A stretch of 64,000 nt of DNA from Antedon mediterranea (lineage: Eukaryota; Animalia; Echinodermata), in the NCBI RefSeq assembly GCF_964355755.1, contig NC_092672.1, positions 930,001 through 994,000 of the forward strand, read 5' to 3'. A model generated the notes under the pieces. The model was given only the letters and a program-made list of their open reading frames with translations, searched no databases and was not told where the DNA came from. The position numbers and the translations under genes are program-made. Positions 37,801 to 61,952 of the stretch are shown here, piece by piece. Numbering within the stretch: the stretch's first letter is position 1; every line of letters begins with the position of its first letter.

Positions 37801-40800
37801 AGTGATGGCTTTCTGACGATTGGGTTTATCGCAAATATCTTGATTTCGCGATAGACGTCATTGCACAATGCTTGATGGGAAGAGTTAGGAGCAACAGCGC
37901 CATCGTATAATACAAACTGATAGTGGAGCTGTTGCTCCCAAACCCTTCCCATTATGCATCGCTCACGCAATTTTCGATAAACCTTATTGACATCTTGGCT
38001 ACGTATTCGTAATAAATTTGTCAAATAAAAGAAGACGACACTACACTTACGCGCGCGCCTATGAGCTGTCGATGACGCGGTGAAGGAATAAAAAAAAAAT
38101 GAAGAGAAGGTCGTGCAACAACACCCTCTCCCCATGGAGGTATAAACCTCCATGCTCTCCCTCTCTTTATCTAAACTCTTTTTGATTTTGAATAATCTAA
38201 AACTGGCGTTTGCATTATTTCTCAGAGCTTCTATGAGAATTTGCAAGAACTGATGCTTGATGAAGAAAGATCTTTAATGAACTTAAGCATGCCAAAGTAA
38301 GTTGTATAATTATTATTATGATATTTATTTTAGCAAATAGAAAAAGTGAAGGAAAGAAAGTAATGCTTTAAAAACACGTTTCAGATATTGAGAGTGGGGA
38401 TGAAAAAATATTACTTATGTTACAATTGGAAATTTGGAACCATTACATAAATAAAGATATACATTTTAATAGAAAGAGGATAATCGTAAATAGGCAAAGC
38501 TATTCGACTTCCGACTCATTTACGTACCTATTCATTGGTTGGCTGAATGGGGGTTTGTGAATTATAGAAGGTCAGAGCCATATATATAAAGAGTTACGAC
38601 ATTGAAGATTAGAAGCCATGTTTGTGTCAAAGAATTCGCACGCTGAGGGCGCGCGCGTCTATTTTGTATAGCGTTTTCCTAGTGTAGTTCATGCATTATT
38701 TTTAAATTTTTTTTGTCTATGAAATAACGCTTATATTCCGTTTTTATTTTAGTAATTAATTTTATTAATGGTATTAATTTTGTAACATATATATATTGTA
38801 TTTATAATAACAAATAATAAATGCTAGGACCGACATGCAAGTCAGGATACATCAAAGCATGAACCAATACAAATTCACCCCTCTTTTTATACAGTATGCT
38901 CTCCGTGTGTTTTTGATACACACTTTCCGAGACTCGTTCATCATTTCATTTGTAATAATTTGCATTTAATTATTTTAATATTGTTCATACCCTATTCAAT
39001 ATATTAACAATTATATCCACGACACTTTCTTATTTTATTTAGTCATCAAAGCATGCATTATGAATTGAAAATATTACATAATTGTTATTAATAGGACGTA
39101 GTTATGGGATGTTTCGTTCCAAAATCAATCAATCGAACTTTATAATGTACTAGCGCACGCGCGCGCAATATTCTTTGCCGCAAGTACTTCTGTACGCTGT
39201 GCACATCGATATTTCACCGTAGAATGTGCAATTACATTTTTTTAAATATAAGAAAAAGTTTAAAGTATTTTCTTGCTCCTATACTTTACATGCAACGGAG
39301 ACAAGTTTGACACAAATTGATCTGCATCACGTGACTATAATCCAATGTCGTAACTCTTTGTATATATGGCTCTGTAGACGGTTGTAAAACAACGCCCTCT
39401 TTACAGATTCATATTTGCAAATTTCTGTCAAAAAGTACAGATCTTTGATACACTATAATATTTAAGTACATTAATGTTATAGTACGTAAGTAACGTTGAA
39501 TCCAATTTTGGTACAGGGACTATAGAAAGAAGCATGGAAAAATCAGGTACTTTATATAAATAATTACTAACACTATAATAATGAAATGGTTTCTTTGTTG
39601 TCTTTGCTGTCTTTGCTGTCCTAATAAATAAATGTTTAACATAATACGTTCTGGATGGCGATTCAGCTTAAAAAAACATTTGACACACATGGCGTGCCAT
39701 AGACCTGAGCTGAAATAATAAAAACATTCGTAAAGAAATCTAATCTCTTTATTCAGTCTTTGGTATACATGTGTTGCTTGGACAACACTGTATTGTTGTT
39801 GGTCATAATAACTGAAAGGTACTAAAATTAACGTTATAACATCATAATGTTTTGTATTCTAGTATTATTCACCACCTTAGAATAATGATACACACATAAT
39901 ACGAAGAAAAACAACTTTCATAGCTATAACTTCTAGCTATACTAATAACTGCACAAGGTCAAGGAAAAGAATTAACAACATTGATAGTGATGAAACATAA
40001 CTATTTATTTATGCACATTTCTTCTTTTTGAATTACAATTTGTTGTATTGGTAATAATAATTAATGATGTATAAGCTTTAATGCCCATAATGTTTTAATG
40101 TTTATATTTTTAGTATATACATACAATGATTTCAACTTTTGCTGCTTTTTGTATTATATTTTTATAAATAAATAAATTTTTCCGCCTTCATGAAAAAAGC
40201 ATGAATCTTTGGTTTGTCTTAAGCTTGGTTCCCATTAGGACGCAGCGCAGTGACGTAAGCGCAACGCAAGCGAGTTGACAAATGGCAAGCGACAGTTCGA
40301 ATATTCCATATTTGCACAGACGTTCTTGTGTCATATTTTCTATAGTGTAACAGCAATATTGTTTTCTCTTAGGTTTGCAGTGTTTGGTTTAGGCTCCAAA
40401 GCGTACGTTAAATTCTGTGCATTTGCTAAGGATCTCGATCGTATTCTCATTCGTCTCGGTGGTGAACGCATTTTCAAAGTTGGTGAAGGAGATGAACTCG
40501 GAGGTCAAGACGTGTCATTCAATAATTGGACACGTGATGTATTTAAGGTAAAAATTCGATAATAAATCAAACGGTTTCTAAAAATAAGATGGATCGATCA
40601 AAATGAAAAACAGTGAAGTAAAGAATGTATCACTTCCATGAGAAGATGCTACTTCTTTTTTTACAATATTGCAGAACATATATTTTTACTGTTTATGTTG
40701 AATTTCAGAAATCGCAAGAAGAATTTTGTCTTGAAGATGACGAGAACTATAAGGAAGCCGTCAAGATGCTGACAACAGAGGGACAGCAGTGGGACAAATC

Positions 40801-43800
40801 AAATTGGAGATTTGTTGAGACAAATAAGAAAGGAATAGATGTCTCAGAAGGACTCGGTACTATTAATAAAAAGACAGTCAGCGCATGCAAGATTTTGTCA
40901 GTAGAAAACTTGCAATCTGAAAAATCTGGGTAAGTCTGGGTTCTAAAAAAAGCATAATGACTTTTAACAAACAGCGGATATGTTTTTCCCCCGGGAAATA
41001 AGAAAGAAGCGTATAGGTTTACTGACGGCTTATACAGGAAAGTAAATGAGAAATAAAGTTTAAAACACTTTCCAGTTTTCCATTTTAATGTTGAAAAACA
41101 AACCATCCTGCTCAAAACATAAAAATATGGAAACAATTCGTGGGAAGCGTTGGAATGACGGAAAACGTTTCAATAGAGGAGAGAATGTCTAAGTTTTAAA
41201 ACTTCTGCTTTCAGTCGTTCTACTATTCTAGTGAAGATGTCAACAGGAGGCCTAGATGACATGGGTTACGAACCAGGAGATCATCTGGCAATATTCCCAG
41301 CCAATGAAGACAGTCTTGTCAATCGAATAATCACAAGAACTGATTTACAAGGCATTCAACCAGATGTTGTCACTAAGTTGGAGAAACAAGAAATGAAAAC
41401 GACTCTTCTAGGTAAGCTAGACTCCTACTCTACTACTTAAGCTCCGTTCACACTATACAATGCAGTTACGTTCTAGAAGGCAATGTTATCAATCAATCAA
41501 AGGACAGTTGTCAAATTAGTATCGGTTCGTGTACAAACGGAACCAATACTTGGAACAATTATTGTTGACGACTCCACCAGGAACCATGAAACGTAAAATT
41601 CAATGAATTACCACATCACATTTTAAATATTTTTAATTACTGTGACAGTATTAGGCCTACTCATAACCTCAGAACAGAAACTGAATTCGAAATTCCCTTC
41701 ACAAGACTAACTTGCAGTCAACAGTTTATACACATATATGGACCAAAATTGTGGAAAGAATTCACTTGTAATGGTGGTAATAAACCGGTTATCTTAAAGA
41801 AACAAAATAAATGTATAAAAAAACAGGTTAAAAAATACTTTTTATCACTATATGCTGATTAACAACACCTTTGTTTATTTAAGTTCTATATACTTGTTCT
41901 TATGTAAAGGGTCCTACAAAAAAACGAAGCTACAGCTTTTTTATGCAGGATCCCTTGTCTCAGTTGTACTGTAATTATGATGTACTGTAATTGATGACTA
42001 AATAAATGTGGAATAAATGTGAAAAATGTGAAATCAATCAAAAAAATCTCTATTTTTTATTCACGGAAAAGTACAGCATACGAGATAAAAAACTTGTTCA
42101 CCACCAAATGTGACCACCAAATCAAGTCGAGATGGCCACACGCCGCTACATTATTCCACAGTGAAATAACGTAGCGGCGGCGTGTATATTCACTGTGAAA
42201 TAACGTAGTGGCGTGTATATTCACTGTGGAATAACGTAGCGGCGTGTATATTCACTGTGAAATAACGTAGCGGCGTGTATATTCACTGTGAAATAACGTA
42301 GCGGCGCGGCGTGTATATTCACTGTGAAATAACGTAGCGGCGCGGCGTGTATATTCACTACTTATTATTGTCTAGAATGAATGGTGGGTTACACTAAGTT
42401 TGTTTTTCTTCCAGGGACTGTAAAAAATTGGAAAGTAGAAGACCGTCTGCCTCAGTGTTCTTTGAGAACAGCTTTATCACGATACTTGGACATTACGTCA
42501 CCTCCTACTCCAGACTTTTTAGCTTTGCTTGCTAATTTCACCGACAATGAAGATGACAAGAAATATCTGAACACTCTAGCCGCTGTAAGTATACTATGAT
42601 AAATGAACCTTTAGGCTAACTTGAAACGATAATATCGAGGAGTACTCTCTAGAGACAGTGCATAAAACAATTGTTTTTATTTATCTTTAGGGAACTTCAT
42701 TGTACGAAGATTGGAAGTTCGAACATCACCCAAACTTAGCAGAAATATTAGAAGAATATTCAACTGTTGAAATTCCAGCTTCTCTTCTAATAGCAGAGTT
42801 ACCGATGTTAAAGCCTAGATATTATTCCATTAGTTCAAGTCCCCGTATGTTTCCAGGAGAAATTCATCTTACAGTCGCCGTTGTTATTTATACAACTCGT
42901 GGTAAGTACTTTAATTGGCGACGCTGGAGACACCCTTTTCCAAATCAGGTACAAACGGCAAGTCCATTTGCAATCAAGTCCTATTCAACTTTGGTGTATA
43001 GGTGTGGAGGATGGCAGGAGGAAAAGAGAACTTATATCATTTGTTAATATTCACACTCATCTTGTGAACATCGTTTGGTTGCATGACGCCTTGATCCTAT
43101 TATGTATACGAAAATAAGCGATTGATTTAATATTACTTTTTTTGAGTGGTAACTATAACAAAAAAATAAATCCTAAACATTTGCATTTGTTTTTCAGAGG
43201 GCCAAGGCGTGGAACACAATGGAGTTTGCTCAACATGGCTTAGCACAAGAAAACAAGGAGATGAAGTGGCAGCTTATACTAAATCGTAAGTATCTAAACA
43301 AAATAAGAATAAGCCTACTTTACCAGAAAAATGACATTCGGTGATATTATGTTACTTATGATAATATATTGTTTTATTTTGAAACATTGAGTAAGAGATT
43401 GTAACAATGGAAACTCTTTAATACTTTTGGAAACATCTGGTGTTTTGCAAACCTGTACTGCACTCTTATTCTCTCAACAAAATGAAAATCACTGTAAAAA
43501 AAACAATTAATGGTGATTAAAATGATATTTTGAATACAGAGCGAGTACGTTCCACATCCCAAGCAACCCATCAACACCAGTGGTTATGATCGGTCCTGGC
43601 ACAGGTATTGCGCCTTTCCGTGGCTTTTGGCAAGACAGAGTACACTACTTAACTGACAAGCAAAACAACGGCAAATTGTCAGCAGATTGGAAGCTGTATT
43701 TTGGGTGTCGACGTTCTGATATGGATCACATTTATAAAGATGAGATGCAAGATGCCCTTAACGGCGAAGCTCTTACTGACTTATTTACCGCGTATTCACG

Positions 43801-45092
43801 AGAACCTGGTCAGCAAAAGGTGAGTTTATTATTACTTAGCTTTTACGAATATTCTAGAAAACGGAATGTTTTCGAAAGTTGTTTCGTTACGATGCATGCA
43901 CTATTATTTGATTTATAATAATAATCAAATTGATTTGAATTGTCCGTGTTTTATTGTTTAAAAAATGCGCAAATGGGAAGTTAGTAATTAAATACAAACA
44001 CTAGCAGAAAGAGAAGAACAAGTTTTAAACTTGTGACGTCCGAAAAGGAAAAAATTCAATCGTACACTATAAACTAGTTTGTTCCGTTTCAATATCAACG
44101 TATACCGTGCACGTTGACATGCGCAGTGTTTGTTCCGTTTCAATATCAACGTATACCGTGCACGTTGACATGCGCAGTGTTTGTTCCGTTTCAATATCAA
44201 CGTATACCGTGCACGTTGACATGCGCAGTGTTTGTTCCGTTTCAATATCAACGTATACCGTGCACGTTGACATGCGCAGTGGGTGTACTGTATATTATTC
44301 TATGCGCATAAACTCAGTTTAATGTTTTTGTAATCTTCTCATAGACGTATGTCCAAGATATGCTAATACAAAGCAGTTCTCAATTCTACAATTACATTAT
44401 GAACAACGAGGGGCATATTTTCGTTTGTGGTGATGTATCGATGGCCTCTGGTGTTTACAAAGCATTCTTACAAATCTTGGAAGAAAATGGATTGACGAAA
44501 GAGGAGGCTAAGACAAATATGTCCAATATGTTGGTAAGTGACATTTATTCATTCAATCAATTTTTAGATTTTTTTTATAATTACAATAATAACAATCATG
44601 ATCATGATTACAACTTTTATTTTTTTGTACTATTTACGTTTGGTTCCCATTTTGACGCAATACAACGACGTACGCGCAACGCATGTGAGTTTGCCAATCA
44701 CAAGCGACAGTTCGGATGACTCATCGAGATTGGTCAAATCATTAAATGCTTGGTTCCCACTAGAGAAGCAACACAGCGCAACGTAACGGAGTTGACCAAT
44801 TACAAGCGATCTAATTCCTTATCATTGGTCAAGGGAGTCGCTTGCGTTGTGTCTATCTAGGGCCTTGCATTGCGTCTATCTAGGGCCTTGCATTGCGTAA
44901 CCTCAGTTACATAGCGCCTAATTATTATTTCTTTTTAATTATTCATTTCAGCGAGAACATCGGTATCATGAAGACATCTTTGGCGTTACACTTCGAACTG
45001 ATGAGGTGACGCGTCAACTACGAGAGAATGAAACGAGTGACACGAGTCAACAACTGGCGTTTAAAACGAGGATAAACCCAGCAAAGAAATAG
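25809..45092 (+). CDS. NOS: Nitric oxide synthase 'NOS-A' (~1269 aa, 23 coding exons), nNOS-like calmodulin site and C-terminal tail
   Basis: Exons 25809-26357, 30738-30877, 31252-31414, 33033-33124, 34520-34658, 34895-35034, 35440-35614, 35986-36087, 36409-36603, 36843-36934, 37108-37252, 37693-37797, 38226-38296, 39517-39546, 40373-40547, 40709-40929, 41215-41411, 42415-42584, 42691-42901, 43198-43285, 43540-43819, 44345-44533, 44952-45092 join in frame. Motifs: Zn [34 protein letters not shown], CaM site [46 protein letters not shown]. The frame stays open back to the acceptor at 25792, so an upstream coding exon is possible. Confidence 0.95.
26467..26609. mobile_element. MITE family B copy in NOS-A intron 1
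   Basis: GGTTGGTTCCCACTGGACGCAACG ... GGGAACCAAGCG. Confidence 0.7.
27553..28860 (+). mobile_element. Degenerate non-LTR retrotransposon (CR1/L2-like) ORF2 fragment: APE endonuclease domain, frameshifted and 3'-truncated
   Basis: [35 protein letters not shown] and TDHLPV motifs spread over three broken frames; ~118-bp tandem duplication upstream (27113-27380). Confidence 0.85.
29305..29615. repeat. ~33-34 bp minisatellite (ACTTTACATGTATTGTACTTATACACGACTT...), ~9 copies
   Basis: Direct tandem periodicity. Confidence 0.9.
29925..30647. repeat. 24-bp minisatellite (CTTATGATCAGACTGTGTCTCCAT) x ~30
   Basis: Almost perfect array; three adjacent units carry a C>T variant. Confidence 0.97.
31915..32296. 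mobile_element. Nested MITE family B pair: inner element 31964-32142 inside outer element 31915-32296
   Basis: Inner element is flanked by TAA duplications (31961-31963 and 32143-32145). Removing it restores GCAACGTAAGAA as seen in the 20997 copy. Confidence 0.8.
35262..35400. mobile_element. Palindromic MITE-like element (relative at 37840-37980 in opposite orientation)
   Basis: Shared ATGGTGGGAAGGGTTTGGGAGCAA and GCATTGTGCAATGACGT..CGCGAAATCAA segments. Confidence 0.55.
37840..37980. mobile_element. Palindromic MITE-like element related to 35262-35400
   Basis: Internal inverted repeat GGAGCAACAGC / GCTGTTGCTCC. Confidence 0.55.
38573..39374. mobile_element. ~0.8-kb non-autonomous TIR element with 8-bp TSD (hAT- or P-like) in a NOS-A intron
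   Basis: TIR CAGAGCCATATATATAAAGAGTTACGACATTG / CAATGTCGTAACTCTTTGTATATATGGCTCTG; flanks TAGAAGGT / TAGACGGT match at 7 of 8. Confidence 0.8.
39517..39546 (+). CDS. NOS: 30-nt microexon of NOS-A in the FMN-domain insert region ([11 protein letters not shown])
   Basis: Flanked by ...gtacAG and GTactt, phase 2-2. Together with the preceding 71-nt exon it equals exactly the 101-nt single exon of NOS-B (7204-7304). Confidence 0.8.
41600..42030 (+). mobile_element. LINE 3'-end remnant, same family as 15230-15640
   Basis: Direct similarity to 15230-15640. Confidence 0.5.
42138..42359. repeat. ~31-36 bp minisatellite (CACTGTGAAATAACGTAGCGGCGTGTATATT) preceded by one inverted copy
   Basis: Tandem periodicity; inverted unit at ~42138-42163. 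Confidence 0.85.
44077..44280. repeat. 51-bp tandem repeat, 4 identical copies
   Basis: GTTTGTTCCGTTTCAATATCAACGTATACCGTGCACGTTGACATGCGCAGT repeated four times. Confidence 0.95.
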
Positions 45093-46432
45093 TAGCTAAA
45101 TCATGGTTTTTACTTCTTTATGCCTAAATTATTAATCCCTAGCGTTTATTTGTAACGTGTAGGTAAAACCATCACCGTGTTACTATACTCTGTAGGCCTA
45201 AGGGCACTGGCCTATATTTAAGTAAAATAGTCGAAGCTTGGACACAAATCCATGTTTTTTTTCTAACGTAGCGCCACCAGAGCCTTTTTATTTTTTAACG
45301 AGTGCAAGTATGACACGCTATGTGTGCCAAAAGTTTTTAGAACCTACATTGTATTATTTAAAAATATTTCAGTTTATTATGCACATCATGAACTAATAAA
45401 ATGTACATTATGTAATCTTATGTAATGTACATTATGTAATCTTTCCTTGTCATTTATTCATAAGTTATTGTTTTGATGTAAACATTTGTTAACTGTTCAA
45501 AAATGTTCCAAAATATTAAGACATTCCATAAAGTTTACAAAATCGTGATATAAAGTTGCCATGGACAACAGACTGCTTCACACTTGGACGCAATGCAAAG
45601 TAATTTAACCAATCAGAGTTGAGATGATCCATAGGAATATGGCTTTGGAAATATAATTAAATCAAAATAAAAACAAGTTATTGTGAATAATGTTTAGCTT
45701 GGCGTTTCAAATTAACCAAGGCTTTTTTGTGAAAATGTTTTATACAGTGTATTTGTAATTTGTATTATGTAATTGACTTTTGACTTAGGTCATGCGGAAT
45801 TTGTATAAATTATTTGCCAAATTAAATTTTAAACTTTAATGCATGTTTTACCTGTATTTTGTAATTAAATAAATGATTTTTACTACAGTCAATAACAAGC
45901 CATTCATACAGCAACAAGTTAATAATCAACATGAATAAATTTATTTATCATAAAAACACATTATATAACCATACATTTCAGTATCAATTAACATAACAAA
46001 TAAATCCCATACCAACAAATACTAGCAAGTCCTCAAACATTAGGCCTATCAGCTACGTCAATACATACATTATCAACAATAATTTCTCTTGCTTTTAATT
46101 AAAATGCATTTAGTATTCTAAAAGTACGTTCACACTTAGCCTGTGTTCTGTCCAGTGAAAACTATTTTACGTTTTCAGATCACACATGATTTGTACAAAA
46201 ATACGGAATGAGTTCAGTGTGTGAACAGTCTAGTATTCTTAAATACTACACCCATTTTTCATGATATCTGGACACCGGTTAGTGTGAATGGGGGTTAATG
46301 ATTCGGGACAATTAGTCTGCTATCAGCTTTTTGTTAAACCTTGTTTAAATAAAGCATCATAAACAGAACTAATGAACTTAAAATTAAAACTACAATGTGA
46401 GAGTGTGCATGTGATTTACACAAAACATTTAA

Positions 46433-46574
46433 AGCTCTGTCCACACTATCAAACTTGTTTGACAAAAAAAACTATGATGTGCATAAATATTGTAGTGATA
46501 TGACATCATCTAGTCCATATATAGGCATATCACATTTTTTGTTGTTGATAAAGTTTGATAGTGTAAACAGAGCT
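46433..46574. mobile_element. PIF/Harbinger MITE family A
   Basis: Same TIRs, TAA TSD. Confidence 0.8.
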
Positions 46575-49029
46575 TAAAAATGTATTTTTTAAACTATTGT
46601 CTATAGATAGCAGATATTTATGTCCATTAGTACACAACATAAATCTGTGCAACAAAGCCATTTTAAAAGGTAAAGTGAGAAACTGTACACAAAAAGAATG
46701 CTGAAGATATAATGTAAAATGTTTTGTCGACTTGAGAAAATCACTTCAAATTCCATTTTGGGTATTTTGCATTATGTTGTCTATTCCTGACCACATGCAA
46801 TGATTTAACATATGTTTCAATATGATGATATAGTAAAATAATACCACCATAATACAATATACTGGTATGGATCGATTCATTTACATTATGAAAGACAAAA
46901 TAACAAAATTAAAACACTTAATGAAATTTAAGTAGGGGATAAACAATATCATTTACTGGTACTGAAGTCCTTTCTAATTTTAATATAAAGGTCAAAGGTT
47001 AGTACATTTTGTATCACTAAATATCCAACTAAATAAAACCCCAACAAAACACTATAAAAAGTCAATTATAGTAGTATTAAGCTACAGTATACTTTAAACT
47101 ATAGTATTATATAGTAGTAAGTAAGCAAAATTTATGTCTTATCGATATATTAAACATAAACACAGAAAATACAATTACTTATTATCACACATTCTAGAAA
47201 AAAACAACATAATCCACTGGCATTTTAGTTGCAACTTAAAAAACCATTCTTTTTGTTTACCAAATTAACATCACACACAAAATACGTTTTATGGAATGAA
47301 CAACCCTAATCTATAATATTGAGATAATCTAAACATCTTCCGTCATATTAACAAACATTTTGTTAATCTCATCATTTAAATTTGAATTAATTTTCATTTT
47401 TAATATTTGTAAATCTTTGTTATTATCCAAAATAAATAAAAATTTTGTTTAACGTCTGGAATTTTCATAAGGATCTTTACTATAATATTAGATTTTGTCT
47501 TGACAAACTAAAAGTGGTAATATTTAATTCAGTGTTAATTATTATTATTAAAGCAAAAATATACTCATTCTAAATTAAAAAAGCATTATAGGATTAACAT
47601 TTCATTGAATATCCTATGTTTATTTTAAAAGGTACAAATTCAAATTAAATCTTTTATATATGAAATTGAAATTTTTTTAAAACTCTATTTAGAGAGGAAA
47701 ACACTTCCAAACTTTACTACAAAAATTGTATTTTTAATTTGATATACCATCTGCTGTATTATCAATAATTCTATGATTTTTTTATTTTATAAATTAATAA
47801 CTTAAATACTATTTACTACTACTACTATAAAAATGTAAAAAACAATATCTTATTTGAAATATCACAAAATTATCAGAGATCATAAAATGTTGGCAATCAA
47901 GAAGATTTTAGCTCTTAAATATGTTATAAATGTAAATGCATGCATTGCTATTTAGGCAAATATATAATAATAAATGACTATAATACTCCACTACATATCT
48001 TAAGTAATTTCTTAGGTACATTCTTAACTTTTCGCCAGATTATCCCAAGTTGCTTTCCAAGGGCTTATGTTTGGAAGAAATGTTTAAAAAAAAAGAAATA
48101 TTATGCAAAACAAAAAAAGAAAACAAGGCTAACCAGCAAGAAAAGTCATTTAAAAATATCAGGGTCATTTTACTGCTTTAAAAAATATTTTTTTTTTTTT
48201 CAATGTGTGATTCTTAGGCAGTCTTAATGCATTATGGGATTTTTTTTTAAATTTCATTTCAACCCCTGTACTTCAAAACATATACGTATACATTAACAAG
48301 TAAACAGAAAAAAGGGATTTGAAAAAAAAACCATAAAATATCATATAAATGCATTATGGGATGGAGCAGGTGCAATGCATTATGGTAGTATTCAAATTCA
48401 ATGAATGAGTGTCTAGTCAGTTGTTTTACAAGGTCATTTAAAAGAGCAGGGTCATTTACTGCTTAATATATTCATTTTTCTAATGTGTGATTGTTATGCA
48501 GTCCCAATGCATTATGATAGAAGAGCTATCATAATTTGAAAATAGTAAAATTGAGCTAACAGTTTTACAAGGTAATCATTTCAGTTTGTTGGAATGAATA
48601 ATGTCATCAAAGAAATCTTTGATGTAAATTGTAATATTTATCAATTCACAAATAAAGTGTGGTCATACTTTTTCATTTACGCAAAAAAAATATTGATAGC
48701 ACCTGAAAATGGATTCAAGTTTTTAAAAAAAGCTTACCTAAAAAAAGTTTTCATAAAAAAAAATATGATCAAACCTAATTTTGCAACCAAACATTTAACT
48801 ATATGTATGGTTGTCAAATGCATTGTTTTGTCATTTATATATTATATATTATGAACATAAAACAAAACATTACTTTCAACACCAAGTTGCAATAATTAAT
48901 CTTTACCCAGGTGAACGTTCACCTCATTCTACTTTGGTAAAGGCTATTAAAACATTTTATATATTTTATATATTTCCACTGTTACAACTACTACTAAATG
49001 AATAGAAGGAAATTCCCAGCAGACTCCTA

Positions 49030-49962
49030 CTAAGATTTCTCTGGCATAGTAATTTCACACGTATCAGTAAAAGGAATTTTTGCAGTAACTGGTATGTACT
49101 CCGCTTGCGCAACAACGTCACGCTCTCGCTCGCATTGAAACGGATGATATAATTTCATTGTTGAAGTATAGATGATGTAAGCGAGCGTAATTCCAGCAAG
49201 ACCGTCCACGAGGTAGTGATGACACGTGTACATGCTGGCCCACACAATCCAACAAACATGAAACACACCGAATCGGTAACCAAACCACGGTCGAAATAAC
49301 ATAACAACTGCCGGCCATGCCACATGCAGACTGGGAAATGCACCAAATGTTACTTTTGATTTACCGTACAAGTTATGAAATAACGGATATCCAAGCATGG
49401 CGTCAACTCGCTTAAAACCAGCCTCATTGTCAGCTACGGATATAATATTTCCATTTGCGTCATATTGTACAGAGTCTACAAACCAAGGGGAGGCTGTCGG
49501 GCTGACAAGCTGAACAAGAACAGCGATAAAGTTCACCCAACCAGCTACCCACAGATACAACGGTACTTCATGTCGCCTTCCAACGTATATCAAGTATAGA
49601 GAAAATACCAACGGCAGTATAAAATGGAACAAGTATGGAATGGCCGCAATAAAATCTAAAACTGGTGAGGTATGACTTGACAGGATCTTATGTGGGTAAC
49701 AATGAAATAAGGAGTGTTCGAGCCACGGAAGAAACGCTGTACTCACATGCTTCTCGTCTAAGCCTAAAAGTTTTTGCAAATCGTGATAAAAGGTGAATGT
49801 GATGAGATAAGCACCAAAAGGTATAAACGCAAGCAGGATCTTGCCGAGGAGTGGCGTGCGCCTAGCCCCGGTAAACCCGCAGTGGACAACCGGAGCCGTC
49901 TTTACAAAGTTTGTGACTTTCGACACGGCAGTGCCCTGTGTCCAGTGGATTCTTGGTGCCAT
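49030..49962 (-). CDS. AUR1-like: Aur1/Ipt1-like inositol phosphorylceramide synthase family protein (PAP2/lipid phosphate phosphatase superfamily), 310 aa, multi-pass membrane, single coding exon
   Basis: Uninterrupted ORF with several hydrophobic helices and Aur1-type motifs PTASPW, AGFKRVD, FGAFPSLH (catalytic His) and WASMYTCHHYLVD (catalytic His/Asp). Confidence 0.88.
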   Translation of the reverse strand: MAPRIHWTQGTAVSKVTNFVKTAPVVHCGFTGARRTPLLGKILLAFIPFGAYLITFTFYHDLQKLLGLDEKHVSTAFLPWLEHSLFHCYPHKILSSHTSPVLDFIAAIPYLFHFILPLVFSLYLIYVGRRHEVPLYLWVAGWVNFIAVLVQLVSPTASPWFVDSVQYDANGNIISVADNEAGFKRVDAMLGYPLFHNLYGKSKVTFGAFPSLHVAWPAVVMLFRPWFGYRFGVFHVCWIVWASMYTCHHYLVDGLAGITLAYIIYTSTMKLYHPFQCERERDVVAQAEYIPVTAKIPFTDTCEITMPEKS

Positions 49963-51240
49963 AATATTACTTTGGAATAATCACTTAGAAAACTGGAAAA
50001 AAAAAATGTAAAAATATATGTTAAAAAATAAATAATAAAATTAATCAACTATTTTACTGGACCATTGCACAGTAAATTTTGTTTCCAGGCTGGAATAAAA
50101 AATGATTATTATGTATTTAAGCACTCAGTAATAAGTTATAAAATATAAAATTGTAGGGAATATGTAACTTCAACAGGGTAAAGTATGCCATTATTGTAAC
50201 TGTATAAATACCAACTTATTATTAGTACAATATAGCGTATAGTATATGACATTACAGTATTGCACTGTCTACATAGACCAACATATTAGTACAATAGTTC
50301 TCACCGAATGACCTCAAAAATTCCGGTTATCAATTGTGCAAACAATAGTGTTAAACAAATATGCTTTTCATTTATACTGTACAGTGTATTACAGTAATGT
50401 CAGCTTAAAGAATTTCACAATACAGTAGTAAGTTTCAGGGAGGCTTCCCCGACACACAAATTCTAGGTCCAGGTGAGACCCATGACACATTATGCGTAGC
50501 TCCTACAGTACAGTAGGTCTTGCGAATCGGAATGTCTTGAGAATTACCGTAAGTGCCAGAGACTAGCACTTTAATTAATAAATTTGGTCAATTATTCTTT
50601 CAACCATGACCTAATCAGATACAATTGTGGTAACGGTAGTACAGTAGTTCAATCAATCTATGGTGAACTACAATAGGGTTTTATTAGAAATATTATAATA
50701 ATAAAGGAGAATTATATTATTTTATGAATCACAAGAAAATATAATGAAGGACTGAATTGGCAAGATTTTAAACTAGTTGTCATGGTTGCAACTGAAGGTC
50801 AAGTGAATTCAAAGAAGAGATTATTAAAATTTAAAGAAAAGATTTTTGAACAGGACAAGGATTTAAAAAAGACTACGCCTCCACATGTTGGCAAAAATGT
50901 CAAATATTCATGACAATACAATCAGAATAAAATTACTAATATTTTTCAATTTTTCAAAGAATTTCAAAAGAAATTTACAAAACATTATCTTTAAAGCTTG
51001 GTTCCCACTTAAGATGCAACATATGGACAACGTTAGAATCACAAGTCACAAGTGACAGTGTGGATGATCCATCACATGATTGCTCAAATGACATTGCATC
51101 TTTCCAACGTCTATTTAGGCTTAGTTACCCTGTGGTTAAGTTGATTCCTGCCCACTAAAGCGAGTGTGCCTCACATGGCACCAACTTAACCTGGAAAATA
51201 CAGTAACTAAACTGAACAGGATCCTAGGACAACAAACTTA

Positions 51241-51379
51241 AGCTCTGTCTACACTATCAAACTTTATTGTGACAAAATAACTTGATGTGCCCATATGGAC
51301 ACGATGATGTCGTATCACTACCATATTTGAGAACATCACACTTTTTTTGTCAAACTAGTTTGATAGTGTGGACAGAGCT
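51241..51379. mobile_element. PIF/Harbinger MITE family A
   Basis: Near-perfect TIRs AGCTCTGTCTACACTATCAAACT, TTA TSD. Confidence 0.85.
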
Positions 51380-52820
51380 TTAGATAAGTTTCTGTAAATT
51401 TGTTATGTGAAGCGTCGCTGATTACATAAGCTATCATAGAAATGAGCGAGCGTTATACAGATGTTAATGAAAGAGATGATCTATCCCTGGTAGACAGTAA
51501 TCATGTATTATTGAAACAATACAAGTCATGGGTCAAAGTGTAACCATGGAGAAATAATCATGTGGTGTATCCATCTGATCTATTGCGCAATATCCATTTG
51601 TTTCCTTTAATGAATTAAATATCAAATAAAACATCAAGTCAGTGAAATCTGAAAACCAACTGACATGTTGCAATATTTAAAAGCTGATTTGATTAGCAGA
51701 AGTAACAATATAAAGATATCATGAGATTGTAGTATTATCAATATTGCATACAGATATAACCTTAGTCTTTGGTACTCACTTATCAATCTAGAATGTACTG
51801 TATTGGTATCCTATTTATCATTCTGTAAGTTTGAACTTACTGTAGGTTTGATGGTTTAAATTCTAATTAGCATGCAATGACCTATGAACCCAAATCATTA
51901 ATGCAAGAAGTCCTTATTGTTTGCAATTTCACACCTTCTTTGATTTCTAATATAAATACCCTTTGACAGTTGGTGCAAGAATACAAAGCAGGATTTCCTA
52001 TTGTGTTAGGGAAGCCAAGCTTAGTCTGTGATGAAATCAGTTTGCACTTCATTATTGTACAAAAATGCTTGTCATCCAAATTTTAAGAAGATGGTTTGGG
52101 GCAGGGTATCCATACAGTTATTAAAAAAAAAGAAACAAATTGTTTGGTGGAGTTACACAAGATTATCATAAAGATACACACCAGACCAAAGATGGGTGTG
52201 GCCTTACTGATACTATCATGGTCAGTGACGTAAATGTATTTTGAACTCCAAATTACAAGGATGACCTGTTGCCAAACGATACAGTTGCAGCCGCCGCTCA
52301 TTTCAAGCCAACTGGACCAGATCGTCTTAAAAAATACACTGTTTTATTTATATTTAGTGCAGTACATGGTGATGGCTTAATTGATCATCATTTAAAACTT
52401 ACTATTTTGACATTGAATTGTGGTAAATTACATGTTTTGTGGGCGGCGTCTAAACTTGCCGATAGATCAACTATGCTATATTATATATATAAATAAACTG
52501 ACCTCCCCTATTTTAGCACAGGGCCCACGCTAGGCCCAGCTTTCTAGAAAGGAGGCCTAACTAATTAATTCAAATATACAAAGTACTAGAAGATATACTT
52601 TATTTGGTTGTAAACAGCTACTTAGTATAGTATGGTGGACACCCAAACAACAAGTATAAGGGGTAGGCCTACTACTCTAAGCGGCTGGGCGCGGTATTCC
52701 TCTTTACCCACCCATGATCGATGATGTTGAGACTAACTAAGAGCGGGAAGGCTAGCCTAGCCTAGCTAGAGGTAGGCTAATAGAATTAGCGATGGAAAGA
52801 CAATATAAACCAAACCTTAC

Positions 52821-52950
52821 CTGTTATGTTAATTGAAACAATAATAAACAGAAATTAACACATTTATATTGTGGTTCAGTCCATGATTATTTTAGTTTTC
52901 GCTACTGTTGTTGAATTTAAGGGCAATAAATATACGTAGCGGCCGTACAC
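52821..52950 (-). other. Probable 5' non-coding exon of the Aur1-like gene (intron ~49993-52820)
   Basis: Strong donor CAG|GTAAGG at 52821/52820. Poly-T acceptor (ttttttccAG at 49993-49994) lies about 30 nt upstream of the ATG. The 5' limit is approximate. Confidence 0.5.
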
Positions 52951-53001
52951 ACACATCAACTGTTTTTGCATCATTACAAAACTCAGCCCTTCGGGATTAG
53001 T

Positions 53002-53012
53002 GGGGGCGTGGC
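53002..53012. promoter_or_regulatory. GC/GT box (Sp/KLF-type site) upstream of the putative first exon of the Aur1-like gene
   Basis: GGGGGCGTGGC in otherwise AT-rich DNA, just upstream of the putative exon. Confidence 0.35.
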
Positions 53013-55000
53013 TGTCAGAATTCACAAAATCGGATCCACTGAAGAGTTATTCTAAAATTGTAGGTCTAAATTATGAATTGCGCGTCTGGGCTTATTTTAT
53101 TAGTAACACATAACAGAATATAATAAATAACAAAATAAATCTATGCACAATAGTTGAATTAAATTTGTTTGTTCGGTTCTTTCCCCCTGTGTAGCCAGTG
53201 CTGGGCCAGCAGCATATTTTGTACTCGATCAGTTTCCTTTCTGAGTTTACCGCAGCTTTCATTTACAAATAAACAATCTCATTTTTTTAAACTTAGGCCT
53301 GTTTTTATATGTACTAAAATATTGAGTTGATTTGAAGGATCACAAAGTTAGTTATCAACATTCAAGATTCTTTCATCCGGGCCTAGAAATTTGACTTTCC
53401 CTTTTTAGCACTAAAACAATACATTGTTTTTAAAACCAACATGAAAGTCATTGAAATATATAAACTGAACATTACATTTAATATTAAGAATCGAAAAACG
53501 AAATCTAAAAATAACAATACTACCGCGTCACCCAACTATTAAATACATCACATCGCACAATCTCAAAATAAAAACTTCTGAGTAATTTGCCGCGTCAACA
53601 AAAAAAAAACCACTTCTGGGCTCAATTGGTACAACAACGTGGTACCCCAGACTTAGTGTGTTTAATATGCGTACTCGCCTCCTGGAACGATTTCTCCATG
53701 ACAACCAGGAACTGAAGGAAGAGAACCACTCGCAACAATAAAATGACTGAATTTTAATCCAACATTATTCTACGTTCAAGATATATATGGCTGCAGTCGC
53801 GTGCTCAAATTTGAGTGTTTATCGACCGACCAACCGACCACGGTCCGACATAGTGAGTAGGGTCGCATTTGCACGCGACTAAAAATTAAGTTTATTAATA
53901 AATCTGACTCTATAGGACATTTTGCAGTCCAAAAAGCCATTGTCTGAAAATGTGACTATTTTCAGGTAAATAGTAATTTTTAAAGTGAATAAAGATTATA
54001 TAAAATTAAAATGGCATATTCAACACTAAAATTATTGTTTTTGTTGACAATATCTACCTTCTTGAGAATAATAGTAATACCAATATATATAATGTTTTAC
54101 ACCTCCATTCAATTTTTATTTAGTGTTATTGATTAATTTTGTTAAAATATTTATTTAAAAATCAGGGTTCGTCGTACTTATCCAAACTTCGGAGTCCATT
54201 AGGAAAACGAGCCCTATTTAGCGTGAGCTTTTGCCTCTGGCATCTTACTTGTTTATTTTTGCCTAAAGCCAGTCATTAATGTCTTAGTCAATTAATAAAT
54301 CACGTAACACCTTGTTCATCTTCCAGGCTCAGCCTTCCTTGCTTCTGATTGGCTGCAATGCACAGCCTATTTAGGAATTGGTCACTCATTGTATTTAGAA
54401 ACCACCATTATACCATGGGTAAATTTTTTGCACACAAAATTAAAGAATGCAAGTGGCCTTGTGGTTAGCAAGGTCAGTTCTAATCTAACAGCAGGGAGCC
54501 AAAGAATGAACTGTAGAGATGAGTTTAAATTAAAAATGTGTGTTTTGTGCACCCTGACTAAAATCGCTGGAAAAGCAAAAACTTTTGTTTTGAAATTAAA
54601 ACTATATTTATAAACTATTTCATGTTCTTCAGCTGAGATCTCAAAATGATCTCTATGGATTTGCCACCCCTCTAATATTAAATATATAGGCCTAGAGTAC
54701 AGTAATACTATTTCAAATTATAAGCAAACAATTAAATACTGTATTTTATAATCATATTTTATATAATAGTTACTTTATGTCTCAATTATAAACCCCTTTT
54801 CTTGAGTATACCCCAATTGTATGCACATTTATGGAGGAAATATATATTTATGTTTTTCTCAATACATAATTTCAGTTTTTATTACACATTAATGTGACAT
54901 TTGTTTGTCTAAGTTGTGTGAAGTAATGATACCAAAAATGTTAACTCTTAATTTGTAACTCCTGAATTGTAATCAATAGATTAGGTCTAAGTAAATATTA

Positions 55001-55844
55001 AACAAGGCCAACAGCCATTAAGTCGCGTGCTACAATGCATAGTGATACCGGACCGACAGACAGACCGACAGACCGACAGACAGACCGACAGACCGACAGA
55101 CAGACAGACAGAGAGACCGACCGACCGACATAATGAACTATACTGACCGAAATTACTGAACATGTTTAAAAATGTTGAAATGTTTAAAAACATTTATTTT
55201 TTTTAATTTACACGTGCGTAGCCTGTCACTTTCGACGTGCTCGTATAACGTAATTTCGAGTTGAAAAGTAAGTCAAGAAAACAGAAATCGGGCAAAAAGA
55301 GTGCGCAATAACATTTAACGCGCAGTGCGCGCGCAAAAATATGCGCACTCATGGCAATTTTGTAAACGCTTAAAATTGCCTGAAATGTACTCTTATTTCA
55401 TCGAAAATAAATTTTGAAAATGTTAAGCGCGCGTACGCATGCGTTACATGCGCTACGCACGTAATTGTATTGCCATATGATGATATTTTATGCCCTGAAA
55501 TTTATGAGTACCAAATTTTATTTAATTGTGATTCATGGTTGTGAAGATATGATTACAAACGTGATTTCGTTAAATCGTGCGTAGATCGCGTAATTTTTTA
55601 TTGCGCACCGTAAAAACATAACCACATTGATTCCTGGCCATAAGGAATATACTGTGTAAAATTGACCTAGCTAGATTAAACTGATATCAAGATAAGGTCA
55701 GAAAGCGATAAAACGCATAGTGATAACGGACCGACAGACAGACAGACAGACCGACAGACAGACCGACAGACAGACCGACAGACAGACAGACAGACCGACC
55801 GACCGACATAGTGAACTATAGAGTCGCTTCCACGCGACTAAAAA
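55001..55844 (-). mobile_element. Helentron-associated (HINE/DINE-1-like) non-autonomous element, copy 1
   Basis: Subterminal inverted repeats AGTCGCGTG/CACGCGACT, terminal hairpin, (GACA/GACC)n microsatellites and A-run flanks. Confidence 0.65.
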
Positions 55845-56079
55845 TGGTTGTTAATGTTACAGATGGAACATTTTTGTTATAGGCCAGGATATCATTATTT
55901 TAACGATTAACTAAAAAATCAGATACTGTAATTAATACACTGAATAAAATCTGTATGTGCATGTTATATATTTATTTTAATTTGAAAATTAACAATTGCC
56001 ATGTAAACATATATTATGGGCCTAATTTGAATGAAATTTTATAGAGTATATATTCTTAAAAAATTCCTGTCCGTTAAAA

Positions 56080-56616
56080 AACAAGGCCAACAGCCATTAA
56101 GTCGCGTGCTACAATGCATAGTGATACCGGACCGACCGACAGACAGACCGACATAGTGAACTATACTGATCGAAATTACTGAACATGTGTAAAAATGTTG
56201 AAATGTTTAAAAACATTTATATTTTTTTAATTTACACGTGCGTAGCCTGTCACTTTTGACGTGCTCATATAACGTAATTTCTAGTTGAAAAGTAAGTCAA
56301 GAAAACAGAAATCGGGCAAAAAGAGTGCGCAATAACATTTAATGCGCAGTGCGCGCGCAAAAATTTGATTACAAACGTGATTTCGTTAAATCGTACGTAG
56401 ACCGCGTAATTTTTTATTGCGCACCGTGAAAACATAACCACATCGATTCCTGGCCATAAGGAATATACTGTGAAAAATTGACTTAGCTAGATTAAACTGA
56501 TATCAAGATAAGGTCAGAAAGCGATAACATGCATAGTGATACCGGACCGACAGACAGACAGACCGACAGACTGACCGACATAGTGAACTATAGAGTCGCG
56601 TCCACGCGACTAAAAA
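56080..56616 (-). mobile_element. HINE/DINE-1-like element, copy 2 (internal deletion)
   Basis: Near-identical to 55001-55844 but lacking ~200 bp internally; fragments also at ~6370-6460 and ~53790-53885. Confidence 0.65.
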
Positions 56617-56767
56617 TGTGAACCTGCATAATGCGATAAAGTATTGTTGGCACATATATTAAATCCCGTCACAGTATATCTTGTATCCTTTAACATTTGG
56701 AATGAGTTGGTGCATGGTAAGATATAGGAATATGGATTATGAAGGGGATGAAAAAATGTGAAAAAGA

Positions 56768-57620
56768 TAGCACAATTTCTCAAATAGGTATACCGTACGT
56801 ACAATTTCTCAAAGAGGTAGCACAACTTCCGGAATGGATTGCACAATTTCTCAAAAAAAGAGGTAGCACAATTTCCCGAATGGTTAGCACAATTTCCCGA
56901 ATGGTTAGCACAATTTCTCAAAGAGGTAGCACAATTTCCCGAATGGTTAGCACAATGTCTCAAAGAGGTAGCACAATTTCCCAAATGGTTAGCACAATTT
57001 CCCAAATGATTAGCACAATTTCTCAAAGAGGTAGCACAATTTCCCGAATGGTTAGCACAATTTCTCAAAGAGGTAGCACAATTTCCCGAATGGTTAGCAC
57101 AATTTCTCAAAGAGGTAGCACAATTTCCCAAATGGCTAGCACAATTTCTCAAAGAGGTAGCACAATTTCCCGAATGGTTAGCACAATTGCTCAAAGAGGT
57201 AGCACAAAATCTCCCGAATGGATTGCATAATTTCTCAAAGAGGTAGCACAATTTCCGAAATGGATTGCACAATTTCTCAAAGAGGTAGCACAATTTCCCG
57301 AATGGTTAGCACAATTTCTCAAAGAGGTAGCACAATTTCCCGAATGGGTAGCACAATTTCTCGAATGGTTAGCACAATTTCTCAAAGAGGTAGCACAATT
57401 TCCCGAATGGTTAGCACAATTTCTCAAAGAGGTAGCACAATTTCCCGAATGGGTAGCACAATTTCTCAAAGAGGTAGCACAATTTCCCGAATGGTTAGCA
57501 CAATTATTTCTCAAAAAGGTAGCACAATTTCCTGAATGTTGCATATTGCACAATTTCTCAAAGAGGAGCACAATTTTTTTAATGGATTGCACACTTTCTC
57601 AAATGTAGGTAGCACAATAT
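56768..57620. repeat. 21-bp minisatellite with two alternating variants (42-bp higher-order unit)
   Basis: TAGCACAATTTCTCAAAGAGG and TAGCACAATTTCCCGAATGGT units. Confidence 0.93.
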
Positions 57621-60600
57621 TTTGTGATTGTATGACCACAATTGTACTGGGAAGGTTTTAAACTATATTTTAAAAAATCACAGTGTGCAGAGGTTAGAGG
57701 GGTTGGAGGCTTAGTGATTTGCTGGGGTTAGTATCAATGACCACATGAGTAATGTGAACTGGGGGTATGTTTTAACTGCATTTGAAAACCGTCATAGAGC
57801 CGGGGTTAGAATTTGTACCAGGAAGTTTTACATTATAAGTCAGCCCGAGTCTGATGTGATGGTGTACCTCTTGACATCCCTACCAAATCCCATCGCACCA
57901 TCCCAGTTTATTTCAGAATCAATTTGTAGTAGGCTATGTATTTCATTGGTAAATTAATAAAATTAAAATTATTCAATTGTAATTGGTTGATCGCTTGACT
58001 ACTCAATTTAAGGTTGAACTTTGTAGCTCCCCATACAATGTTGTTAAAATGTACAAAATCGAAAAGGAAACATGGAAATAAAGGCTTACTTAAATAATTA
58101 TAAGGCGTGAAAAGGCTATTATATAAATATTCATTTATTTCATGAAATCAAACTATTACCTAATCATTAAAACATGCTGTAACTGAAACCTGATGCTGTC
58201 GGTGATTGGCTGTTGGCAAACAAAGTGGGCTTGGCCTCTTTTAGTACCCAGATACTTTCCTGCATGATTGATGGCCACTGTTCTGTTAATTACCCATCAA
58301 CAAGACTGATCAGGGTCAAAACAATTACAGGCAATTATAGTACCCCGGGTTAGCCGGGGTACTAAAAGCTCACGTTAAATAGGGCTCGTTTTCCTAATGC
58401 AGTAGCGTGATGTAAGGTGGATCCGATTCTATTCTAAAGAAATCAATAAAAAACCCACATTAAGCACGTGAGAATTTGTACATTGAGGGCGTTTCGTTCA
58501 ATATGAGTTTTGTAAATACAAGTTTGTCGCCCTCTATACCACAAATCGTAATTATTCGTTTACTCGAAACATGAATGATATTATAATTATGCTGTTTCGA
58601 GATACCGCCCGAGATACGGCATGTTTTAATCCATGCTCGAACTTTTCCGCTGCGTAAAAAAAATATTTATAAATCACAATGCATCTTGGGATTACAACTA
58701 GATAAATTAGGAATGTGTTGAGAGCTAGAAAGAGAAAGTTTAACAGTTTTATTCTGCAATCATTAACGATATTCCGCTGATATCATGAATTCCGATGTGA
58801 AATGATATTTTGTAAACTCAGTTTATGTTGAATTGTGATTTGTTTCTCTGTTATCGTTTATCGTTTGATACTTTCTTTTCTCTAAATAATTCGAGCCAGT
58901 TGAATGTTTACCATTACGACATCACCACTCCGGGGAGTAATTTGTCTGTAGTGTAAAATAATTATACACTATGCAAGGCGATCTAAGGACACTGAGTTCG
59001 CCTAGTCAAGATAGGAACTCGTAACAGTCCTTTTATCTTATGTCTGGCTGCGACAAATACCAACAATACTGTACAATGTAGGCCTAATTCTTCTCCGCGG
59101 CCCGCGGTTTCTCCTATGGGTGAGGAACTTATCCGCATGTCGCAATGACAGATAAACCCTTTGATATCCGGAGCTTAGCATCCTATTGTTAGAATGCCTT
59201 GCACTATGGTACTAATTTTAAGTTGACGACTACCCGCATACTTTTCACATGATTCTAAGCCAATGCGTCACGACGATAGAAACGAAAGTATCTACGTAAC
59301 GCGACGATGTTGGTAATACTCGATTGTACGTCAATTGGAATCATGTGACATTGGAGAGAAGGCTCCTAATGTCACTATGTTAATTTTAGGCCCTACACCC
59401 CTCCTACTCCCTCCACAACATCATCGAAAAGTGCGAGGCGTACGGTAGCTTGCAGAAGTTTGACTGTTTTTGTTAGCAGACAGAGACGCGCCCAAAATGT
59501 ATACATACATAAGTCTTATTTACATTATTATTTGGATCTTACAGTAATCATATGAATATCAAAATAACAAGAATCCTCTATTGTTGATGAAAACGAAACC
59601 AGACGCGCGACCACATACTTTCATTTCATCATTTTTTCAGCGTGAATAATTCCAGATATTTACCCTTTCATTGGCGGCAAATAAACATAATTAAATTAAT
59701 TGTTTTCAGTTTCTTTTGAAATACCACTGCGTCACGCGTAGACGACCTATAATGTAATTATTATTGTTTAAGCTTGGTTGGACGCACGCAAAAATGTGAG
59801 CGTAACGTAAATAATTTGATCAACCATACATATTATCCAAATCCTGGCTTGTGATTGGTCAACTCACTTGCGTTGCTTGTACATCGCATGCTCAGTGGTA
59901 GGCCTACATTGCATGGCGAATTAGTTAAAGTTAATTTTGACGAATAAAACAATAGCGGTTATCGATATTCATAATAATAATAATATTTTTCGTAATATTG
60001 TTTGAGAAAGCAACATTATTAATGTCTGCCGCTGTTATGAAAGAGTTTTCCGAATCAATCAATATTATTATTAATTGATTAATATTTATAGTTTCTACGA
60101 ATAAAACAATCGGTTTGTGATATTCTTACCAACAATTAAACAATCGGTTTGTGATATTCTTACTAACAATTAAACAATCGGTAATATTTGTTAAACAACT
60201 TCGTTGGAATACTACAAGCAAATCAACACAAAGAAATATTTCTTGTTGTATTACTCTAACGATGATTAAAAAAAGACATAGATGTTTAATGTGCGTTCAC
60301 TCCTATACATGTTTAGGATCCGGTTTAGGAACCGGATTAGCAAGGCGGACATTAAACCAGGGAAGAGGTAATTTAACTCTTCCCTGATTAAACCAGGTTA
60401 CGTGCGTTCAACCATGGATCATTGATGTTTCCCGCGAATTATGACGTATGAAATGTTACTGAATGTTTCCCCTAATAGGCTTAAAATGTATTAATTAGTT
60501 TTACCAAAATAAAAAAAAAATATTTAAATAATTTTCTCATTTTACTTATTTGTTGTGTTTTTAAGATTTTGTTGCTGTGTATACTTTATTAACATTTTTA

Positions 60601-60709
60601 ATTTGACAAAAAGGAATAAAAAGAATGTAAACGTTTAAAAATATTTAAAAACACTATACACTTCTAATGCTTGTTTACGGTTTATTTAAATAAGTAAATT
60701 ACACAGTAA

Positions 60710-60919
60710 AGCGTGGTTCCCACTAGCGACGAAACGCAACGCTATGACGTATTGACGCAAAGTGCTGTTGCGTAATCACAAGTGGGAACTGACGATGCAA
60801 CAGTGCTGTAAAGTCACAGGTTTGATTTCACGCAGGCGGGGGCAAACACACTTATTGAAAGGACATATTCTTACGTTGCGTAGGTTGCGTTACTTTACGT
60901 CGCTACTGGGAACCAAGCT
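60710..60919. mobile_element. MITE family B (PIF/Harbinger-like)
   Basis: TIR AGCGTGGTTCCCACTAGCGACG / CGTCGCTACTGGGAACCAAGCT; TAA TSD. Confidence 0.82.
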
Positions 60920-61859: not shown

Positions 61860-61885
61860 TGACGTCATTAGCATAGGCCTATAAA
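61860..61885 (+). promoter_or_regulatory. CRE (TGACGTCA) plus TATA box upstream of the second CYP
   Basis: TGACGTCA at 61860-61867 and TATAAA at 61880-61885, about 70 bp upstream of the ATG. Confidence 0.55.
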
Positions 61886-61952
61886 CATTCGTGGTTCATT
61901 GATTTTATCATACTGCTCGCGGTCCTCGTCGTCGTCGTAACATCAATACAGT

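Follow-up and report, generated by a model that had tools for sequence, protein, structure and literature searches.

The feather star Antedon mediterranea carries an Aur1-type gene of its own, whose product, as judged from its sequence, is probably an inositol-phosphoceramide (IPC) synthase (a probability of about 0.75) and, by analogy, the likely source of the inositol-phosphoceramide core of crinoid gangliosides. Within the window (the whole stretch of 64,000 nucleotides that was analysed), the gene contained an intact minus-strand open reading frame (ORF) of 310 codons and a stop (Table 1), a length that the local stop frequency would allow by chance with a probability of about 2e-10. As an earlier note on this DNA had described, the ORF encoded all the quoted motifs and lay between NOS and CYP genes. 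The neighbours were identified with Pfam (10 of the 15 ORF pieces submitted gave a match) as NOS exons on the plus strand at 35.4-43.9 kb (NO_synthase, FAD_binding_1, NAD_binding_1) and a p450 exon at 61.9 kb.

Table 1. Features of the Aur1-like gene of Antedon mediterranea (positions in the window, residues in the 310-aa protein)
Feature	Positions	Strand	Basis
Coding sequence, 310 aa, uninterrupted; Aur1-type (PAP2_3) membrane phosphotransferase, six-helix core (predicted)	49030..49962	-	ORF, Pfam, PDB match, model
5' untranslated part of the coding exon, 30 nt, contains an in-frame stop	49963..49992	-	RNA-like contig of run X5, reaches 49992
Splice acceptor of the 5'-UTR intron, T-run + CCAG	49993..50006	-	X5 contig departs from the genome exactly here
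3' untranslated region, minimum extent	48249..49029	-	X5 transcript contig 48249-49992
IPCS1-like motif D103..Y110..H113-F114..P117 (yeast D146, Y153, H157, F158, P161)	49612..49656	-	alignment
PTASPW loop, residues 155-160	49483..49500	-	sequence
IPCS2-like AGFKRVD, residues 181-187 (yeast GGLARID)	49402..49422	-	alignment
D3/C2 motif FGAFPSLH, from residue 206; H213 = yeast H255, S211 = yeast S253	49324..49347	-	alignment
D4/C3 motif MYTCHHYLVD, from residue 244; H248, H249, D253 = yeast H293, H294, D298	49204..49233	-	alignment

Nine public runs from two organisms contained all or part of the window, and four of them were compared with it. The Aur1-like gene is spliced, with an intron in its 5' untranslated region, since a contig of 1886 nt from run X5 mapped to 48249-49992 and left the genome at the acceptor, its final 150 nt not fitting. 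Position 49992 is the first base past the T-run and CCAG on the minus strand, 30 nt ahead of the ATG. Runs X5 and X9 were taken as RNA because their contigs began or ended where NOS and CYP exons are spliced (the record itself is not marked as RNA). The upstream exon represented by the 150 nt found no placement in 42000-61500 (85%) or in 47500-64000 (93%), and neither AATAAA nor ATTAAA occurred in 48201-49030. Two contigs from run X2 (48191-49872 and 49874-51257), unbroken through the 5' end of the gene, tied it to the host flanks and to a high-copy repeat; X2 bears the same sample code as the best-holding run, and X5 is another sample.

The best relative of the Antedon protein, which is itself on record on a sequence of 39 Mb, was its ortholog XP_033126660.1 from the comatulid crinoid (feather star) Anneissia japonica, 89% identical over the full length and located on a 2.5 Mb scaffold (its name, 'IPC synthase catalytic subunit AUR1-like', is an automatic NCBI label only). 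In the second organism (B), the ORF differed at 28 sites and was free of gaps over 877 nt, and the flank pieces contained 65-83 gap letters; between X5 and the window, three of the four listed differences within the ORF were silent. The gene therefore belongs to the animal host, as it was found in two independent assemblies, on a spliced contig and on contigs joined to host flanks, with its frame kept in a second organism. Contamination is not tenable, and the earlier note was right to treat it as a real gene of an animal chromosome. Among 34 loci in prokaryote genomes, the best long match reached 33% identity (over residues 36-272, L001:3001-3720 in a Rhodobacteraceae MAG, the rest being mostly from Myxococcales and Thermoanaerobaculia), and 12 pattern matches in viral contigs included no relative. 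Codon 205 (49348-49350), right before FGAFPSLH, read Thr in the window and Lys in another sample, in organism B, in A. japonica and in most of the family; Thr is probably a private allele.

Two NOS genes stood head to head (3157-11358, minus strand, and 35378-44719, plus strand), at least about 24 kb apart, and p450 genes were found at both window ends. The Aur1-like gene was flanked by two MITE-like elements (46427-46579 and 51237-51385), each about 150 bp in length and bounded by long terminal inverted repeats; the pair was considered as a mobilising unit and rejected, its members being about 80% alike and very high-copy, with the upstream exon apparently outside the pair. A segment of 839 bp (55000-55840) between two GACA microsatellite arrays was skipped in the X2 and X5 contigs and may represent a deletion allele or another repeat copy. 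Broken LINE-like endonuclease/reverse-transcriptase fragments occurred at 27538-28802 (weak Exo_endo_phos_2 match), and tandem arrays at 29925-30648 (24 nt x 30, 99% alike) and 56801-57618 (21 nt x 38, 73%) produced long spurious open frames. Rfam returned no match within the 64-kb window.

The assignment to Aur1-type enzymes that the earlier note had drawn from the motifs was borne out by family and structure searches. The protein matched Pfam PAP2_3 (PF14378) at E 2.8e-20 (73.4 bits vs a gathering cut-off of 27), and yeast Aur1 chains were the sole PDB sequences matched below E 0.001 (E 7.5e-25). The AlphaFold model, built from a 44-row alignment (pLDDT 83.7, pTM 0.80), predicted a six-helix membrane core like Aur1 TM3-8. 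Foldseek, through which all fold comparison was made, retrieved only two PDB entries below E 0.001, both Aur1 (9vj4 and 9ivc, E 7e-10 and 3e-9, TM by query 0.55-0.56). The catalytic triad H213/H249/D253 aligned with yeast H255/H294/D298, the auxiliary H113, S211 and H248 with H157, S253 and H293, and F114 with F158; the roles of the triad and auxiliary residues in yeast Aur1 are given in the available part of PMC13133130. All seven residues were invariant in the 25 subfamily cores examined (25/25). As defined in the accessible text of PMC11402645, the fungal IPCS1 motif (D-h-h-n-W-x2-Y-x3-H-x3-P) had the near match DFIAAIPYLFHFILP, with A in place of W and one residue shorter, and IPCS2 (Y-x3-G-x3-G-L-x-R-x-D) the near match AGFKRVD, i.e., G-F-x-R-x-D without the upstream Y and G. 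ESM Atlas gave generic PAP2_3 clusters only, for the Antedon protein and one outgroup.

Compared with yeast Aur1 (Saccharomyces cerevisiae; PDB 9vj3/9vj4/9ivc), the crinoid protein shared the six-helix catalytic core, the H-H-D triad, the auxiliary residues and an identical FGAFPSLH, but overall identity was 26-28%. The Gly-Ala-Pro kink of Aur1 is Ile-Leu-Pro in the crinoid, and the lipid-binding lysines of the Kei1 interface were not in register (K274 in a gap, K314 opposite crinoid M269). According to the part of PMC13133130 available, purified yeast Aur1 is inactive without Kei1. The crinoid enzyme probably works without a Kei1-type partner, since its predicted model comprises the catalytic core only: it starts near Aur1 TM3, and TM1-2 are without counterpart. 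Both aureobasidin anchors of yeast Aur1, H157 and F158, were kept, but five other contacts differed in a by-hand reading of the alignment (Aur1/crinoid: L225/F183, M236/L194, Y237/F195, A240/L198, F241/Y199), so that sensitivity to aureobasidin is not predictable.

DdIPCS1 (DdCSS2) from Dictyostelium is an IPC synthase from outside the fungi that is related to Aur1 and shows activity on its own after cell-free expression, as described in the accessible part of PMC11402645. By this description, it differs from the crinoid protein, which keeps H and F, in having eight predicted helices, resistance to aureobasidin and a poorly conserved 157/158 motif. The sole NCBIfam match was NF052609 (Bacteroides-type phosphoinositol dihydroceramide synthase; E 2e-22), a short PAP2_3 inositol-phosphotransferase family of 305 positions like the crinoid protein, but 80 bits against a cut-off of 480 mean that the crinoid protein is not a member.

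Holozoan relatives were closer. The Aur1-like subfamily of Holozoa showed 43-55% identity to the Antedon protein, with the common signatures AA[IV]PYLxHFxLP and NEAGFxRxD, and comparison of sequences places the crinoid gene in this subfamily of sponges, cnidarians, choanoflagellates and Syssomonas, not with fungal Aur1. The initial search retrieved 114 proteins with E no higher than 0.001 out of 1111 candidates. Two profile searches with a limit of E 1e-10 brought 201 and 280 proteins (best 120 of each inspected), and an exhaustive search of 50% representatives yielded 1172 matches (best 150 of 1172 inspected). Named among the matches listed were sponges of three classes (Amphimedon, Oscarella, Sycon), cnidarians (Hydra, Hydractinia, Sanderia, Rhopilema, Nematostella, Acropora, Porites, Orbicella, Oculina, Dendronephthya, Paramuricea), three choanoflagellate species of Salpingoeca, and Syssomonas multiformis. 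This presence in sponges of three classes and many cnidarians indicates that the animal ancestor had a gene of the Aur1-like family. The only bilaterian named among the matches listed was the crinoid (30 clusters looked up, most members unnamed), which suggests that the gene is absent from other bilaterians. The 'fungal' character ascribed to the gene in the earlier note was thus not upheld, the nearest relatives being animal or other holozoan proteins, and neither was a uniqueness of the gene among animals.

Many animal members of the subfamily carried an N-terminal motif of the SWNxFAxxL type that the crinoid protein was without. A profile built from seven cnidarian N-termini detected a related motif at 41 bits in a demosponge-clade protein, at 17 in Oscarella and at 15 in Sycon, and also in an unlabelled clade; it found none in the two crinoids, Syssomonas, the choanoflagellates or Amphimedon. 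Five loci (L055, L058, L061, L063, L064) represented an unlabelled marine clade of the family with the animal-type motif. Seven long metagenome loci out of 69 were examined, six cnidarian-type and one sponge-type, and all had the catalytic core in one open frame, located after an AG acceptor in the six cnidarian-type loci. In cnidarian-type loci L047, L050-L052, L059 and L039, a phase-0 intron lay just 5' of the catalytic exon, with the N-terminal motif in a separate first coding exon. The acceptor stood 57 codons ahead of a conserved proline in the crinoid, compared with about 27 for coral-type loci; the two therefore do not have an intron position in common.

The origin of the gene was weighed among several routes. 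Acquisition from a fungus, or fungal/microbial contamination of the assembly, had in its favour the motifs identical or close to those of yeast Aur1 and the lack of coding introns. In a FastTree phylogeny of 274 sequences (283 chosen among 379, fragments and cluster duplicates then dropped), however, the crinoid pair fell inside a 136-row clade together with every named holozoan row and well away from the fungal-like ones. The latter owe their label to a single match with yeast Aur1 (P0346, E 3e-97) and to grouping with it. Fungal-like rows split off at 100/99 with intermediate outgroups, and constraining the crinoid with three of them was rejected (AU p 0.011, 30 rows). A tree with two fungal-like rows and no other outgroup was rooted on the crinoid branch (87/84 for the rest of the rows), which we read as long-branch attraction because intermediate outgroups remove the root from that branch. 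The placement of the fungal-like rows, the host linkage and splicing described above, and the 33% ceiling of long prokaryotic matches with no viral relative leave the fungal or contaminant reading largely refuted and close to negligible, and with it the fungal donor considered in the earlier note. A horizontal transfer whose donor was a unicellular holozoan akin to Syssomonas, following bilaterian loss of the animal copy and with later gain of the 5'-UTR intron, has in our view an even chance. The crinoid pair grouped with Syssomonas in six of the seven trees holding the latter (SH 0.987, 91, 99/96, 82/93, 97 and 98/96, the last on the 235-column core only; the value of 91 comes from a quick tree of 47 rows), the exception being the tree with two fungal-like rows as only outgroup. 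Syssomonas was not a long branch (0.32-0.53), no other bilaterian was named among the matches listed, and crinoids, Syssomonas and choanoflagellates alike missed the N-terminal motif found in cnidarians, Oscarella, Sycon and the demosponge-clade protein. Among topology tests, run after the first trees had been seen, the grouping of the crinoid with named animals against Syssomonas and choanoflagellates was rejected (p 0.017), as was that with cnidarians on the core (p 0.028), but the latter was not rejected with N-terminal columns included (p 0.115) or with Syssomonas left out (p 0.29).

The same transfer depends on one Syssomonas transcriptome sequence, since trees that omit it leave the crinoid unplaced, and the branch leading to the crinoids is long (0.7-1.3). 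Core identities did not single out Syssomonas (52.8%, vs 52.8% for a choanoflagellate, 51.9% for Oscarella and 51.5% for Hydra), which was tied with an unlabelled protein for rare residues shared with the crinoid, and Amphimedon, an animal, also failed the N-terminal profile. Two further signs were discarded: the lack of coding introns, since the one-frame core is common to cnidarian-type genomic loci, and GC3, whose value of 0.43 is the top of the neighbours' range (0.24-0.43). Vertical descent from the holozoan ancestor, with the gene surviving in crinoids, gone from most other bilaterians and misplaced in trees through fast evolution (or an ancient paralog), falls somewhat short of even odds. 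It accords with the occurrence of the family in three sponge classes and many cnidarians, with the two of three tests in which crinoid and cnidarians could stand together, and with a one-exon catalytic core that follows a 5' intron in the crinoid as in cnidarian-type loci. It would require many independent losses, however, and it conflicts with the two rejected groupings, with the differing intron position and with the fact that no unlabelled sequence joined the crinoid pair in three trees (SH 0.987, 91 and 97). Routes other than these two are quite unlikely. The alternative of transfer or ancient retention stated in the earlier note therefore stands with mixed tests (p 0.017-0.29), the candidate donor being now a unicellular holozoan, as the Syssomonas trees suggest, and not a fungus.

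The likely function in IPC synthesis follows from the characterised relatives (yeast Aur1, the bacterial enzyme and DdIPCS1), which all put inositol phosphate on ceramide, and from reports of IPC where the gene occurs. If the crinoid enzyme operates as yeast Aur1 does, D253 would activate H249, which would take phosphoinositol from PI with release of diacylglycerol, and H213 would then activate the ceramide hydroxyl to yield IPC; the reaction would take place on the luminal face of a Golgi-type membrane. The product would provide the inositol-phosphoceramide core for crinoid gangliosides. The feather-star IPC and IPC-core gangliosides mentioned in the earlier note do appear in the literature: the available text of PMC12113132 cites the IPC CJP1 from A. 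japonica (formerly Comanthus japonica) and zeamide from a sponge, and annotates six lipids of the sea pen Pennatula as putative IPCs, while that of PMC4393008 describes echinoderm gangliosides with a glycosyl inositolphosphoceramide core and cites two papers whose titles name glycosyl-IPC gangliosides of two feather stars, one of these papers being cited again in the accessible parts of PMC4699235 and PMC10216186. A coral preprint, in the part available, includes CerPI among the lipid classes of a table. IPC lipid and Aur1-like gene thus appear to co-occur by lineage in A. japonica, sea pen and sponge. The zeamide paper, in its accessible part, leaves undecided whether sponge or symbiont is the maker and cautions that marine IPCs may derive from symbionts or diet (PMC6151786). 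The feather-star genome may also encode another IPC-making enzyme.

Several observations weigh against IPC synthesis, namely the 26-28% identity to yeast Aur1, an NCBIfam score far below 480 bits, the need of purified yeast Aur1 for Kei1, and fungal IPCS1 and IPCS2 motifs matched in part only. A lipid-phosphate phosphatase of PAP2 type, with no transferase role, would have fold class and triad in common with the crinoid protein, but we consider it very improbable: K-x6-R-P, the C1 motif of PAP2 lipid phosphatases, was absent from 25 of 25 subfamily cores, Pfam PAP2 matched at E 4.3 only (vs about 3e-20 for PAP2_3), and phosphatase structures came at Foldseek E 0.03 or worse. Animal SMS/SMSr also share fold class and triad, yet human SMSr came at Foldseek E 0.09 with 11% identity, and PAP2_C (SMS/SMSr and plant/protozoan IPCS type) gave no match at E up to 10. 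The same chemistry could serve another head group or acceptor, e.g., aminoethylphosphonate or ethanolamine phosphate transferred onto ceramide, or a second inositol phosphate onto glycosylated IPC as by Ipt1. The triad, common to SMSr, does not disclose the choice of head group, and Pfam PAP2_3 takes in both Ipt1 and Aur1 (UniRef name). Ceramide aminoethylphosphonate is abundant in cnidarians, and molluscs make phosphonate lipid of this type; no mollusc was named among the matches listed, which argues against phosphonate transfer. Ceramide aminoethylphosphonate is listed in the available coral lipid table. In view of the inositol-phosphate transfer by all three characterised relatives and of the IPC reported, in the sources as accessible, from A. 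japonica, the species with the 89% ortholog, a different head group or acceptor is unlikely. According to the available parts of both structure papers (PMC13133130, PMC12122681), the account of PI specificity comes from docking or is left to further study; as it is not understood even in yeast, the head group is not readable from sequence.

NCBI automatic annotation already labels crinoid, coral and sponge proteins AUR1-like. A literature search, with most subscription journals and supplements outside its scope, found no published description of an animal Aur1-type family or of a crinoid IPC synthase. New here are the deuterostome case, its match to feather-star lipid chemistry and the affinity to Syssomonas. 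In a fuller scenario, the ancestral IPC synthase disappeared from bilaterians and returned to crinoids through transfer from a unicellular holozoan, giving them, by way of a Kei1-independent enzyme, the IPC core of their gangliosides and making them the sole deuterostome lineage with a fungus-like sphingolipid pathway; this scenario is put forward tentatively, the odds being rather against it as a whole. IPC synthase activity, the reading we prefer, would make the gene a candidate for producing the lipid that was obtained from feather stars in 1999 and forms the core of their gangliosides; the literature search found no gene assigned to it. The view of Aur1-type IPC synthase as specific to fungi is corrected, such genes being carried by sponges, cnidarians and a deuterostome lineage. 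A short and probably Kei1-independent enzyme would offer a simpler system for studying how PI is recognised and aureobasidin bound, and, if the link to Syssomonas is true, the gene would represent a rare protist-to-animal transfer restoring a lost lipid pathway.
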